Assembly: GCA_046497485.1 (NCBI GenBank)
Contig: JAWOFP010000052.1
Span: forward strand, 1-13,160
Direction of reading: 5' to 3'
From: Candidatus Nanohaloarchaea archaeon
GTDB taxonomy: Archaea > Nanohalarchaeota > Nanosalinia > Nanosalinales > Nanosalinaceae
DNA length: 13,160 nucleotides
Position numbers: made by a program. Below are positions 6,001 through 12,000 of this stretch, piece by piece; the first letter of the stretch is position 1, and each line of letters starts with the position of its first letter.

Positions 6001-9000
6001 TTAGAGAGTTCATAGAATAAACCGGTACTAAAAATTTATTTACAGGCTAAGATAAAGAATAGATATGGCATTTGAAGATTACAGCCTGAAAGAAGGATTG
6101 ACAGCTACAATGGCAGCAGTCCTAGCCAATCTAACAGTTGTAGCAATTTCACAGAATCTTTTGATGACAAACGGAGAATTCATGCCTCTGACATTTGGTC
6201 CTGTAGCCGTATTCACAGCTATTGCAGGAGTTCTAGGATTTGGAGCATGGGAGTTTTTCAAAAGATATAGAGAAAAAGCACAGAGAGACTACATGCTGCT
6301 TGTATCTGTGGTGACTCTGCTTTCATACGCGACAGTTGTTTTTGCAACAGAACAGCCTGGAGCAGGAATGAAGGAAGTTATCATGCTTTCACTAACTCAC
6401 GCAAATGCAGCAGTAGTTTATACAGCAGTCCTTCTAGAAGCAGACAGATAAAACCTATTTTTCTTTATTCTTTTTTGATATACCAGACTTTACTCCCTTC
6501 TAATTCCCCTTCAACCCGAGATCTAAACAACTTAATCAATTCTGAGGTAAGAGATAACTCGGTTCCATCTCTCAATACAGCCTTTTCCTCTTCTTCCACA
6601 ACTTCTTTCAAAAAGCCTTCAGACCACTTATCTTCATCCGTACTTGGAGGCTTAGCTCTTAAACGATCCATTTAATCTCCTCCATGAATAGTTATAATGT
6701 AATGAGCAGGCCTGTGACCTTTCGGCTTTCTGTCCTTAACTGAGTCAGAGACACCCGTCTCAGCATACCTTTTCTTAGGCCTGACATTCCACTCCCAGTT
6801 ATCAATCGACTCAATGCTATCTAAAGTATTTGAGATCTTAGGTGTTATCTTCCTCAAGTCTCCGACAATCTTTTCGGCGTCCTGGCCTTTCCTCTCCCTA
6901 GAGAAAGGCTTAATCTTCAGGACATTCTCTCCCTGAGGCCTGACAGATTTAATGCCTTCAATCTTTGTGAGTTTTTGGACTATTTGCTTCATATTTGCTG
7001 TATAATCAAAATATTTAGGAAGTTACTAAAAACTTCCATAATTCATTCTAGAATAGGTGTCTTCGTGGCTCAACAAGAAACTAAATACAGCAATAATTTA
7101 TTCTCAAACCATTTCCTAGAAGAAAGAATCCAAGACCTAGACGAATGGAACGAAACAGAAGTTGAGGAAAAGTTTGAGGAACTGAAAGAACTTTATGAGA
7201 AAACTGAAGGATTTCTTTCCGAAGAACTGAACGAAGACCAGACACAGGATAAATTCATTAATCCGGTGCTGAAGGCCTTAAACCATGAATGGGTGCCGGA
7301 AGCACGGACACGAGTAGGATCGAAAAAAAGAGGCTCAATACTCAACCCCGACTACACATTCATGGGGATGGAAACCCAGATGGATGTCCACGAAGACGAG
7401 GATTTAAGCCACTTCGATGTGAATTACGCAGTCGGAGACGCCAAGGCCTGGAACCGAACACTAGATAAATCGACTCAGGACCATACCAACCCAGCTTTCC
7501 AGATCTACAATTATGTCGATAGACTAAGAGCTGACTGGGGAATACTGACTAACGGGAAGAAATGGCGGCTCTACAGCTACGAAGACTGCGCCGCAGACAT
7601 CTTCTTCGAAATCGACCTAGAAAAACTTTTGCAGGGAGAGAAAACAGAGGAAAAAAGTTTAATGCAGGATTTATACTTAGACAGAACCAATTATTTAATT
7701 GTTACTATTTAGTAACAATATATGTCTGAGAGTTATGACCTTCCAGAACCTCTAGACGAATCTGATTACGAAGAGATTCATGAAGACGATATCGTAGGCC
7801 TTGAGCACACCAGAGACTTTGTCGACAAGTTTGCCACCTACGTGAATAATATTGATTACTTCCAAGAACAGGATGCGGAATTCCCTTCAGGTGTAGTCTT
7901 TGTTGGTAAACGTGGTACCGGTAAGACCATGATGTCACGGTACGCTGCGACACAGGCAGATGCAGCATTTATAGATGCCCAACAGTTCGACTGGAACGAA
8001 AGGAATCCTACAAACGAGGTCGATGAAGTCTACGAGGCAGCTACAGATTACTTCGATGAAACAGGAAATCCTATCCTGCTTTTCCAAGACGAATTCGATG
8101 ACGTCTTCGATATAAATGGGCACAGTAAAAGCGATCAGGCAACAAAACTAATGCAACAGCTTTCAGGCGCAAAAGGATCCAGTTCTCCCGGAGTCTTCTT
8201 CATGGGAACAGCAAACGAGATACCTTCAAACTCCAACGACTCAGATAGAGCACTCTTCAGGAAAGGTCGTCTAGAGGATTATCACTTCTCCACCCCTTCA
8301 CTGGAACAGCGCGAACAATTAATTGAACACTACGTCGACAGAAAATACGATGAACACAATGTTGACGCAGAGTCACTAGCCATGATGTTTAACGACCAGT
8401 CAACACCTGCCGAGATAGAAGCCCTGGTCAACCAGGCCTATACCAACGCATTGATGAGACAGGACATGGAATTAGACGGCTCGGAACTAGAAGTAACTAC
8501 AGAAGATCTGGCGCAGGAACTAGTCCAGGACAAACTAAAACAGAAAAACGACGTCAGCCGGAGCAAAGAAGAAAGAGAGAAGACAGCAGTACACGAAGCT
8601 GGACACTACCACGTAGCTGACGAGGTAGGGATCGGAACACCGATCGTAACCATAGAGCCACAGATAGAATCACTAGGCCAGACATACCTGGTGGACCCAA
8701 GCACAGGGATGGACTTCGACAGAGGCCTTGAATACGCAGCAACAATGTTAGCTGGATACGTAGCCGAGAAAAGAAAAGGATACGACCCAATGGGAGGCCT
8801 CAGCGGAGACCTCAAGAAAACAGACAATTTGACAAAACAGATGGAAAAAGTCATGGATGTAGATACCTTCTACCACAACTTTGTGGACGGGGACGGAGAA
8901 CCCAATATCGAATCCATGGTTGACAGGAGCGAAGTCAACGATCTGATGCAGAACCTATCGGATGACCAGGAACAGTTCGGAGAACTCATGGAAAGTCTAA

Positions 9001-12000
9001 ACATCCTTAACTCTGCAGACCGAGGAAAACTGCCCGTAGGGCAGTCCGCAGTAAAGGTAGCAGCCCTCCAGAGAGCCAACGAAATCCTCGAGGAAAAAGA
9101 GGAAAACGGAGAATTCGACCAGACAGTAAACACTCTTTTAGAAGAGGAAACAGTACTTGGAGAAAAACTCTGAGAGAATAACGAAAATAATTCTCCGGCC
9201 TCTGAACCCACTTAATCTAACCATAAGAGTTCTTATACCAGACTCAACTATTTTCTGTTATGGACATAAATGGACGTAGAACTGATCAACTCTTCCGGAT
9301 ATCCGGCGGATTTGTCTTGGTGGGCCTGGCAGTAAATGCTGTGATAGATACCCGTGTACCAGAGATTTATGCCACTGTACCGAGGTAAACAAATCATGCA
9401 TGACAACTTAACCTGTTATTCAAGATACTCGTTAACGAACTCTTCAAGATCTTTCCGGCCCGGCTCCGGAACCACCGGATATTTCTGAAGATCTCTGGAA
9501 AGTACAGGGTTTTCTCTTTTCTCTTCCCTCCAGGCGGAATAAAGAGCCTTAGTATCTGCCTCGAAACGATCTAAAATATCGGGACCCAGCCTTCCATCCC
9601 CCAGAAAAAATCTGGAGAGGACAACATCATAATTACCAGCCACTTCCCCGGTATCCAGATCTGAAACACTGTATATATCTACATCTCCTGATGTATTCGA
9701 ACTGTAAAATTCCTTCATTCCATGAAATGCCTCATTCCCGGGTTCGTCTAACAGAAATTTCATATCCTCAGTCTATCTAAGAGTACTGAAAATTCAAACT
9801 CTGAAATAACCTCTGATTCCAGACAGTACCAGAGAAATCTAAAAACCAGGGGCTGGATCAATCTTTCCTATCTCATAACCTCATAACGCCTCAAAACCGA
9901 GATATTACCTCCTGTATCTGCAGAAACACTGTCTCAATGATCAGGCCTTGTAATTCTGAGGCCTGAAGTTACCTGAACATGTGATAGAAGGCATTGAAGT
10001 ACGCTGAAAATGTCTTTCTTCTGCCTTTCCTTACGGTTTGTTCCATGGTCTCTTTTACGTTTTCTGTGATTCCTTCTCCGTGTCCGCAGAAGATCCTCTC
10101 AGGTTCAAACTCCAGAAGCTTCTTGGGAGGATTCAAACGGTACAAAGGATTCATACCCAGTTTTTCTCCACGACCTCTAAGATGTTTCGTTGTTCCCAGT
10201 GCATCAGCCACGATCAAAGTCCTGCTATCATCGTTGTAGAGAGCTGCTTCGTTAGCCATCCTGGATTCAACGACTGTATGGATCTCCCAGTCCGTACCCG
10301 GAACATTACCTGATATTTTCTCAACCTCTGCATCTAGCTCTCTTCCAAACCATTCAGGTACGTAGACAGGACAGTCATATCTTTCAGCCAGTTTTTCACT
10401 ATCACGTTCATGCCGTTCGAAAAGCAGTAAAATGCCTTTGACCTCTCCAAAATCATCGATTTTCTGATCAAGGTTTTGTGCATCTAAAGGATCAACCAGG
10501 TAAATACCGTCATCCACGAACGCATGAGAAGTCCTTTTCATCTTTTCCTCAGGCCTTCCTATCCAGCCAAAACCTTTCTCCCACTCATCAACGAACTCTG
10601 CATCTCTCAACTCTTCGACCTTGATACTCATGGGAAAAATTTTAGATACTTATACTGAAGAACCTTTCCAGACAGCTATACATCATCTACCGGGGAACCA
10701 GTTCCTCCTGAACTACCTTTTCCAGATCCAAATACTCTCTCGGTTTCTGGATCACCTGATACCGGTCCAAGCCCTCCTGGATTTCAGGATAATCAACTGC
10801 CTCATCACGGCTCCATACAGTATAAAGAGCTTTATTATCCGCCTTGAACTGATCTAGTACATCAGGGCCTCTCACTCCATCTTCCAGTACAAGCTCGGAG
10901 ATAACTGTATCATAATCCTCTCTTACCTCCTCGATATCAATTTCCGAGGCATGTTCGACATCAACTTCAGCATCAGTGAATGAATTGTAAAGCTCATCCA
11001 TCTCTTCAAGTGAATTACGCGGACTTTCAACAACTAAAATTTTCATAATATTCATTCAGGGAGAAACAAATAAATTGATTTAACCCTTTTAGACACATTT
11101 TTTCCCTATTTGAATACAGAATTTAATTATTTTAGATGTAATATATGATTATTCCGGGATTTTGAATTTTAAACCGGTTAATTCTTCACTTCTTTCCCAA
11201 AGCTTCTTTGCATCATCCTCGTTTTGAGAGGCCTCTGATGATCCCTGTTTTTCCGGGTATCCTCTAGCATGTTTGAAGCCGTCAGGTCCGATGTACTCTC
11301 CTCCTTGTATTTGTTCTGAGGTGGCCGCATAAAGCATTGGGAGACATCCCTTACTTGGTGATTGACCAAAAATTTTGCTGATCATTTGACCGAGGTAAAG
11401 TTTGATTTTTGAATGCTCCATCTTCGGCCCTATTTTAAACAGGTTAGTATCTGATATTCCTGGATGACAGGCGACAGATTCTACATCAATATCTTTGTCT
11501 TCTAATCTTCTGTTTAGTTCGTAGGTGAACAAGAGGTTCGCAAGTTTACTCTGACCGTACGCACCCCATTTGGAATAATTTTTTTCACCCATCAGATCAT
11601 CGAAATCAATTTCACCGTCTTCATGCGCCATAGAGCTCTGATTGACAATTCTGCCACTGGACTCTACAATTAGATCAATTAAATGTGCCGTCAACGCAAA
11701 ATGGCCGAGATGGTTTACTCCCAGCTGCATTTCGAAGCCATCTTCAGTTTCTCTTCGAGGTAAAGCCATCAAACCCGCATTATTGCAAAGTATGTAAAGA
11801 GAATCATGCTTTTGTTTAAACTCTTCAGAGAAGGATTTTACAGACTCCAAATCAGAAAGATCAAGCTCCATAACTTCAAGATCAGGCTCATCCAACTCCT
11901 TTTCAATTTCTTCTTTGGCCTTTTCAGCCTTATGTAAGCTTCTACATGCCATTACAACATTTGCTCCGTTTTCAGCAAATTTTTTGGTGGCTGAAAATCC

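Follow-up and report, generated by a model that had tools for sequence, protein, structure and literature searches.

A palindromic promoter box in nanohaloarchaea and a TrmBL2-like protein as its candidate repressor

Nanohaloarchaea are very small halophiles that live as symbionts of other archaea. The window analyzed here, a 13,160-nucleotide stretch of one such genome (G000), carries a perfect palindrome between the TATA-like word and the start codon of a gene for a soluble, FtsH-like protease, and the statistics described below confirm that this box is real. We propose that one conserved winged-helix protein of TrmBL2-like type uses it as an operator and would repress a box regulon, with a host-directed role as the most likely one; the probability of this overall reading is put at about 0.7. 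No regulon of any kind was found described for nanohaloarchaea in the portions of the literature that were searched, and what is new is the likely regulator, which has a box upstream of its own gene. The features concerned are as follows (window positions unless a contig is named).

7065..7712, + strand: upstream ORF of 215 aa, whose stop codon (7710-7712) falls inside the box
7694..7699, + strand: TATA-like TTTAAT, 28 nt ahead of the ATG (from the sequence and the clustering of TATA starts in relatives)
7698..7719, no strand assigned: operator, a 22-bp palindrome with perfect 9-bp arms and a 4-nt spacer; its core GTTAC-N6-GTAAC occupies 7701-7716
7722..9173, + strand: soluble AAA+/M41 (FtsH-like) protease, 483 aa (from Pfam, motifs and alignment)
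G000 C24:5927-6763: TrmBL2-like winged-helix protein, 278 aa

The box and its position in promoters

The core box GTTACTATTTAGTAAC at 7701-7716, with the ATG 21 nt further on at 7722, is matched exactly nowhere else in the 967,558 bases of this genome, and the full operator is the top-scoring site (matrix score 27.9 in one scoring and 26.5 in another). The consensus is TTGTTACT-N4-AGTAACAA, written TTGTTACY-N4-RGTAACAA, with the core TACY-N4-RGTA. In the box promoters of relatives the TATA start is concentrated at -27 to -30, and the protease promoter itself is probably leaderless. The upstream ORF, for which a Pfam search gave no match, may, judging by its motifs, be an N-terminal fragment of a restriction enzyme.

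At up to one mismatch, G000 contains 22 box sites genome-wide, and 8 of its 1109 genes carry the box, against a mean of 0.38 expected from column-shuffled promoters; at up to two mismatches there are 20 such genes (shuffled mean 5.8). A spacer of 6 is the only one to stand out from these shuffles at up to one mismatch. The pile-up described in the earlier note was reproduced, with 19 sites (up to two mismatches) in the -24 to -17 bin and 1-6 in the other occupied bins; the box start varies from -17 to -24 and its distance from the TATA is variable. The genome-wide matrix count is not raised (47 sites scoring at least 8.5, compared with 48-55 in local shuffles), but non-coding sites exceed the shuffles (38 versus 12-18) while coding sites fall below them (9 versus 36-49), so the signal is positional and not a genome-wide excess. 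For matrix training, eight loci of relatives were omitted as copies of G000 or likely false. The exact box has 55 sites, spread over 36 of the 70 genomes (17 sites for the control), and a stricter, position-specific pattern that requires the ATG is found in 45 of the 70 (91 strand hits; control 8). No positional excess was seen in 81 Micrarchaeota (36 versus 42). The central 4 nt differ freely from site to site, and a recombination or attachment site was rejected on that ground.

A motif-independent check came from a 37-aa micro-protein that is encoded in 38 of the 70 genomes, retains the box, and is the first gene of a hypervariable cassette hotspot next to metG (63 genes of 35 families at 29 loci). 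Of 28 micro-protein promoters located by protein search and kept out of the training set, 22 score at least 6, compared with 15 of 1118 in the background, and de novo motif finding on them recovers the identical palindrome; the right arm is the better-conserved half in micro-protein promoters. The micro-protein was not found beyond family f1, has no solved relative at E < 0.4, and is modeled as one helix with an uncertain tail (pLDDT 69). With it, the regulon has a conserved member, which corrects the earlier picture. The sepF match, previously dismissed as a false positive, is kept across family f1: 18 of the 19 orthologues scored there reach 4.6 or more, as do only 2 of 20 other G000 leaders with AGGTAA; that dismissal is not established, and sepF probably belongs to the regulon.

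A TrmBL2-like protein as the candidate regulator

A TrmB orthologue is present in 69 of the 70 genomes, with a nearly invariant helix-turn-helix; the N-terminal TrmB winged helix (PF01978) is matched above cut-off (E 6.6e-21), and Tyr50 and Asp51 are invariant in 12 TrmB sequences. Among 28 candidate DNA-binding genes of G000, trmB alone has an upstream site (10.1 at -107; runner-up 4.3). Taken alone, the G000 site lacks significance, as 22 of 1088 genes reach at least 10 in that range, but at -89 to -120, behind a TATA of its own, it is kept in 25 of 29 orthologues (at least 4; background 61 of 1088), a count that leaves out the TrmB paralogue L216 and comes from kin, not from independent cases. 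Among metagenome loci, a site scoring at least 8 precedes trmB in 27 of the 40 halophile-like orthologues and 10 of the 28 distant ones (shuffles 0-1), with a peak at spacer 4. The site is absent from the four family-f4 orthologues tested, although f4 has boxes. Four of 61 Micrarchaeota have a trmB orthologue, each with matching half-sites spaced N7 upstream; genome-wide, this N7 pattern is not in excess (7 sites in the 4 genomes with TrmB, 6 in 5 without).

Because the TrmBL2-like protein occurs in 69 of 70 genomes, has the box upstream of its own gene, and because the box shares the TACT half-site of TrmB sites, this protein is the likely regulator. The claim that one repressor gates a set of accessory genes is supported as the best reading, and a candidate repressor can now be named from upstream-site conservation. 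That this protein binds the box is predicted with considerable confidence, and that it represses the genes behind it, predicted from the position of the site, only slightly less firmly.

The closest structure and profile are those of TrmBL2 (PF0496/TK0471; PDB 5BPD, 5BOX), which is of comparable length and alike over residues 12-276 (E 7e-15); likeness to TrmB 3QPH is limited to residues 9-106. The TrmBL2 model NF041141 is the best NCBIfam model, yet at 70 bits it lies below its cut-off of 530, and models of sugar-sensing TrmB/TrmBL1 give 49-69 bits against cut-offs of 500-650. According to excerpts of PMC3031468, TrmBL2 in Thermococcus has no consensus site and represses many hypothetical genes from their promoters; here the trmB gene goes together with a sharp palindrome, and if the assignment is true, a TrmBL2-like protein would have a defined, sequence-specific site, unlike the one of Thermococcus. 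Sugar-sensing TrmB, TrmBL1/Tgr and halobacterial TrmB share with the present system Tyr50-Asp51, TACT/AGTA half-sites and sites at or behind the promoter, from which they repress. The part of PMC4158304 consulted gives the published sites as TACT-N3-AGTA and TACT-N7-8-GAGTA, with repression from a site that lies downstream of the promoter. The box resembles a TrmB operator in palindrome and position, and differs in its N4 spacer. The sugar-sensing proteins act on sugar-pathway genes, in contrast to the accessory orphans here, and neither their complete C-terminal sugar-binding domain (in a protein of ~340 aa; the orthologues here have 278-286 aa) nor a sugar regulon was found: none of the 16 G000 promoters scoring at least 10 precedes a sugar transport or glycolysis gene, and one relative has a boxed, truncated PPDK_N gene.

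In Haloferax, sepF drops on cdrS-ftsZ2 repression, and CdrS is a ribbon-helix-helix (RHH) protein that binds mostly 41-110 nt upstream of the start (from the section of PMC8406309 consulted). sepF has a weak site here, but no boxed RHH gene was found in G000, and a CdrS-like regulator was rejected. HxlR was also rejected: exact box matches before some HxlR genes have G/C flanks and probably belong to another regulator, and the two HxlR genes of G000 score below 0.

Genes behind the box

The protease retains Walker A, Walker B, the arginine finger, HEAGH and the third Zn ligand, as judged from motifs and alignment, and so shares the AAA+ and HExxH catalytic residues of FtsH (M41). It differs in lacking the membrane anchor and the pore-1 FVG loop, both of which are gaps in the alignment, and in its sub-cut-off Pfam scores (AAA 1.7e-10, M41 7e-6); nine close clusters are 62-98% identical to it, while the next FtsH stands at 24-30%. 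The gene is present in 3 of the 70 genomes, and a metagenome scan gave zero confirmed loci. Its reported occurrence in two of 49 family genomes stands, as does the box at -21 in one of them; the other box is degenerate and, with the start called here, lies at -17 and not at -23.

The other box targets include a transglutaminase-like protein, a stand-alone RamC_N lyase-like domain (unboxed in G000 itself), an ATP-grasp protein, a methyltransferase and an SLT-LysM protein. One homologue of the transglutaminase-like protein has PF13471; a single-sequence model of the transglutaminase-like protein itself (pLDDT 38) is too poor for use. The description of the targets as orphans holds: 15 of 16 have no Pfam family, compared with 55 of 140 at baseline (Fisher p 2e-5). 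Their description as cytoplasmic is mostly borne out, in that 0 of 17 box proteins have a hydrophobic segment (against 231 of 997), but twin-arginine-like signals occur in 5 of 69 box ORFs, and surface proteins are among the products. Box proteins are poorer in lysine than other orphans (3.3% versus 6.7%, p 0.002) and have a higher DE/IK ratio (2.7 versus 1.6, p 1e-4), and box genes have a lower GC3 (0.29 versus 0.38); many unboxed orphans are likewise lysine-poor, and one run of the composition control omitted 10 genes of contig C59. PADLOC matched 1 of 43 box proteins (an AAA domain, to IetA) and PHROGs 1 of 42, marginally, and by these searches the box genes do not appear to belong to anti-phage defence or viral families. 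A viral origin was rejected, as viral contigs also hold neither the exact full promoter pattern nor a TrmB relative. Atlas searches gave leads below 0.9 only, or nothing.

Proposed role and alternative readings

Most of the transcripts being leaderless, the TrmBL2-like protein, bound between TATA and start, would block initiation and hold down ~15-20 promoters per genome: those of single accessory genes wedged between housekeeping genes, of the micro-protein-led cassette hotspot beside metG, of trmB itself (its upstream promoter) and probably of sepF. A host-directed programme of soluble, fast-evolving proteins might then be switched on when the symbiont meets a host. Such a putative effector programme is the most likely role, at odds slightly below even, and is favored because box proteins are lysine-poor and include protein-modifying enzyme folds.

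Nearest to it is the view that the same regulator and box serve a stage or stress programme internal to the symbiont (dispersal, starvation, or the start of growth and division) with nothing sent to the host, a reading that carries a substantial minority of the probability. The conserved sepF site fits it, as do the absence of export signals from most targets and the failure of secretion ATPase profiles to match in G000; it should, however, show conserved members, and most targets are patchy (3/70, 4/70, 1/5 and 0/5 close genomes; 5 clusters in a protein search), and none of the 16 G000 promoters that score at least 10 belongs to a chaperone or repair gene. Less likely, an abundant TrmBL2-type chromatin protein could silence AT-rich accessory genes of unrelated function, much as H-NS does. 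The likeness to TrmBL2, the low GC3 of box genes and the transcript level of trmB (in the SVXNc table 8641 RPKM, close to the 9814 of a histone; six SVXNc locus tags were all absent from the supplements of PMC11803251) agree with this, but the palindrome is sharp, fixed in place and kept in orthologues across genera, only 1 of 55 orphans has a box at 6 or more, and the cassette hotspot retains its conserved boxed head gene.

It is improbable that another protein (RHH, HxlR or the micro-protein) reads the box and that trmB is a target only. A 47-aa RHH gene is boxed in genome G001, exact or near-exact matches occur at HxlR genes, and the candidates checked in G000 number just 28; against this, the RHH and HxlR genes of G000 score below 0 with the matrix, the micro-protein is confined to family f1 as found, and TACT palindromes accompany trmB into distant lineages. 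Least probable is a basal promoter element or activator site, for which the right arm, overlapping the predicted melted region and better kept in micro-protein promoters, and a TATA-like word downstream of some sites would speak; dyad symmetry, the variable TATA distance and the repression exerted by published TrmB sites downstream of promoters (PMC4158304, in part) all argue against it.

Within the preferred reading of a TrmBL2-like repressor with host-directed targets, a host-contact switch, in which one repressor couples lineage-variable effectors (protease, lyase, transglutaminase-like and cross-linking enzymes) to the symbiont's division gene sepF, is a tentative suggestion. Equally speculative is that some effectors with twin-arginine signals are exportable by the host's Tat system only; TatC occurs in 20 of the 70 genomes and not in G000. 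As for a delivery machine, the PF19044 profile has no match in G000 and PF03135 is found in 1 of 70 genomes, though divergent machines could escape such profiles; inspection by eye showed no signal common to the N- or C-termini of box proteins.

The hrp, PIP and PmrA boxes are effector-regulon elements of bacterial pathogens, at which activators or sigma factors act and which go with a known secretion system. They too are conserved promoter elements marking a variable set of orphan, enzyme-like genes, whereas the nanohaloarchaeal site looks like a repressor operator and a delivery system was not found. Since the operator is conserved and a candidate for its repressor can be named, each genome yields a short gene list (~15-20 of 1100), and the box is a sequence tag for finding proteins that symbionts may use on their hosts.

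Nanohaloarchaeal symbionts have been proposed to inject 'yet unknown effectors' into their hosts (PMC10266531, in the part consulted); if the host-contact switch is true, the box predicts these postulated effectors and the metG-linked cassette is their hypervariable hotspot. The box and TrmB would form a protein-DNA pair open to test, and a marker for the life-cycle state of the symbiont.

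The box before start codons and across the phylum

The window corresponds to contig C39 of a genome of 967,558 bases, which named homologues put with the nanohaloarchaea. In the window sequence, a GTTAC-N6-GTAAC palindrome (the box), a putative operator, is located between a TATA-like word and the ATG of the gene for a soluble 483-residue FtsH-like AAA+/M41 protein (the protease):

7694-7699: TATA-like word, 5' of the box core
7701-7716: box core, GTTACTATTTAGTAAC, with perfect 9-bp arms (whole palindrome 7698-7719)
7722-9173 (+): protease gene, with its ATG at 7722, directly behind the box

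The box reported by the earlier note is confirmed in its position, conservation and orphan targets. Using our own gene calls (1146 genes), the pile-up before start codons was reproduced, with 19 sites of up to two mismatches at -24 to -17 against 1-6 in the other occupied bins. Sites with at most one mismatch start at -25 to -16 in 8 of 1109 genes (0.38 in column shuffles), and only one palindrome, of the AGGCCT family, ranks above the box among all 5-N(0-10)-5 palindromes. When 53 sites of relatives were used to train a matrix, 14/1118 promoters of the genome scored at least 10, compared with 1/1091 in a control window. The excess lies in where the sites fall and not in their genome-wide number: 47 score at least 8.5, against 48-55 in local shuffles, with 38 non-coding (12-18 shuffled) and 9 coding (36-49 shuffled).

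The exact box occurs in 36 of the 70 phylum genomes (55 sites, 17 for the control), and a pattern that must be followed after 1-8 nt by an ATG occurs in 45 (91 strand hits against 8); by family, the latter pattern is found in 35/49 (f1), 6/10 (f4), 2/8 (f5), 1/1 (f2) and 0/1 (f3). In Micrarchaeota (n = 81) it shows no excess (36 hits, 42 control hits; one of each comes from an unpublished genome, G103, leaving the outcome unaffected). The literature searched, which covered few subscription papers, describes neither this box nor any regulon of nanohaloarchaea.

Box genes and their products

The protease is the only one of 16 box genes in the genome with a Pfam family over cut-off, whereas 85 of 140 sampled soluble proteins have a match at E ≤ 1e-7, bearing out the claim that nearly all box genes lack family assignment (15/16 orphans against 55/140, Fisher p = 2e-5). 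Among ORFs behind boxes in loci fetched from relatives, 39/55 have no match at E ≤ 0.01, and the others include PPDK_N, RamC_N, ATP-grasp, methyltransferase, GHKL, SLT-LysM and surface-protein domains; a few domain-bearing cases, such as a GrpE fragment, are likely due to chance. Box genes mostly stand singly, and housekeeping genes flank most of them. Their ranges are patchy, as the earlier note had found for the protease alone: the protease is present in 3/70 genomes, the C33:1454-2029 family in 4/70, with the box kept wherever the start is in view, two other box genes in 1/5 and 0/5 close genomes, and a transglutaminase-like boxed protein in five clusters of the protein search. The protease keeps all the catalytic motifs of FtsH and differs from it in having neither a membrane anchor nor the FVG loop of the pore. 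The ORF at 7065-7712 of the window, presumably a truncated restriction-enzyme gene, ends inside the box; in genome G039 different genes precede the protease, which suggests that the gene travels together with its promoter. Downstream, two small paralogues (9416-9763 and 10687-11055) appear degenerate receiver-like by eye and have no Pfam match.

The description of box products as cytoplasmic largely holds. Hydrophobic segments over the set threshold are found in 0/17 box proteins of the genome and 231/997 others, but 5/69 box ORFs carry twin-arginine-like signals, four of them in genomes (78-89% complete) without detected TatC. TatC is present in 20/70 genomes and was not found in this one (97% complete), although seven of its proteins (eight by rule, one spurious), two with weak boxes, carry such signals:

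C7:52088-53044
C12:27402-27914
C17:5474-5704
C17:12716-13306
C36:981-2450
C36:2475-3926
C38:29348-30154

A 37-aa micro-protein (C21:7854-7967) is a conserved member of the box set. It is found (E ≤ 0.002) in 38/70 genomes, every one a member of family f1, and among 1.84 billion representatives searched, 71 clusters matched, almost all of them 32-45 aa long. Promoters located by the protein only score at least 6 in 25/31 cases (22/28 without three training loci), and a de novo palindrome search of those 28 returned TTGTTACTAnnTAGTAACAA. In most loci the micro-protein heads a cassette flanked by a metallo-beta-lactamase gene and metG, a hotspot in which the ~1.5 kb behind the micro-protein gene hold 63 genes of 35 families over 29 loci; four have their own box and none a membrane segment.

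Several further observations concern single genes. A stand-alone RamC_N lyase-like domain, weakly matching a phosphothreonine-lyase effector profile (E = 8.5e-5), occurs unboxed at C34:2248-3111 and boxed in genome G053 (L030:1522-2475). Boxed, membrane-anchored archaeal SLT transglycosylases with LysM (L062:1772-2911 and L063:839-1978, family f4) suggest contact with peptidoglycan-bearing cells. A 47-aa ribbon-helix-helix gene (L031:1360-1503; G001, family f2) has the box at -21, and good matrix sites lie near putative starts of pilin-like or surface-protein genes (C44:2666, C44:4374, C7:45787, C51:32044).

A TrmBL2-like candidate regulator

The proposal that one repressor controls this accessory set is supported, and a candidate can be named; we infer that the product of trmB (C24:5927-6763) binds the box and represses the genes behind it, perhaps in response to a contact signal. 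Among 28 candidate DNA-binding genes, only trmB is preceded by a site (score 10.1 at -107; the runner-up reaches 4.3), which is weak by itself because 22/1088 genes score likewise. The gene occurs in 69/70 genomes with a near-invariant recognition helix, and the interval from -89 to -120 scores at least 4 in 25/29 orthologues (the 30 best-scoring loci minus one paralogue; background 61/1088) and at least 8 in 16/29 (27/1088); the four without a site all belong to family f4. The site lies behind a conserved upstream TATA, over the predicted start of that promoter, and a second promoter nearer the gene has no box. Among metagenome orthologues (best 80 of 244 loci, minus short and duplicate ones), sites score at least 8 in 27/40 halophile-like and 10/28 distant members (44-49% identity), with a peak at spacer 4 (shuffles 0-1). 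Only 4/61 Micrarchaeota have an orthologue, all four with the same half-sites upstream at N7 spacing. The tie to trmB extends over three lineages. The N7 pattern gives seven sites in these four genomes (three at trmB) and six in five genomes without trmB; as the counts are alike, no wider regulon is shown there. The upstream regions (L246-L249) contain two or three TACT-N7-AGTA-type boxes in tandem, with TATA words between them, and the spacer shift from N4 coincides with a changed recognition helix.

The box shares its TACT half-site with the TrmB operators described in PMC4158304, where sites downstream of the promoter repress. The trmB product resembles TrmBL2 over its full length and sugar-binding TrmB in its N-terminus only, so its inducer probably differs from the known sugar signal. 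Exact or near-exact boxes with G/C flanks precede HxlR genes (L027, L061 and C25:4538-4840), probably as a second regulator's look-alike site. The sepF match, dismissed earlier as a false positive, scores 8.6-8.8 in the genome; it lacks a TATA at -28 and has one ~24 nt before the site, as at trmB. Its conservation (at least 6 in 15/25 loci; re-scored in register, at least 4.6 in 18/19 f1 loci against 2/20 AGGTAA-containing leaders of the genome) speaks against that dismissal, but because the right arm overlaps the ribosome-binding word we only lean towards a real site.

Composition and a possible host-directed role

Box proteins contain 3.3% lysine and 8.2% alanine with DE/IK of 2.7; the corresponding values for 55 orphans without a box are 6.7%, 5.0% and 1.6 (p = 0.002, 0.007 and 1e-4). 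The shift persists without contig C59 and for proteins of at least 80 aa, despite a lower GC3 (0.29 against 0.38). Alanine enrichment has been described for haloarchaeal proteomes and glutamate enrichment for nanohaloarchaeal ones (bioRxiv 2025.02.15.638363). Because GC content accounts for part of such bias (bioRxiv 2024.03.10.584303; 2023.07.03.547478), the composition is only a hint of a host-directed role; many unboxed orphans are also lysine-poor. Defence and phage libraries gave almost no matches among box proteins.

Giant VirB4-linked proteins have been postulated to carry unknown effectors into hosts (PMC10266531); profiles for these proteins matched 1/70 genomes and nothing in this one. 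A box with a candidate repressor brings the open question of effectors within reach of direct tests. In Table S1 of that paper, whose one condition cannot show regulation, trmB stands at 8641 RPKM and the eight genes between MetRS and a beta-lactamase-fold gene, assigned to the cassette hotspot by gene order only, at 0-389 RPKM. A run of large, mostly lysine-poor, unboxed proteins without Pfam match (C57:1678-7531) may represent the same class under other control.
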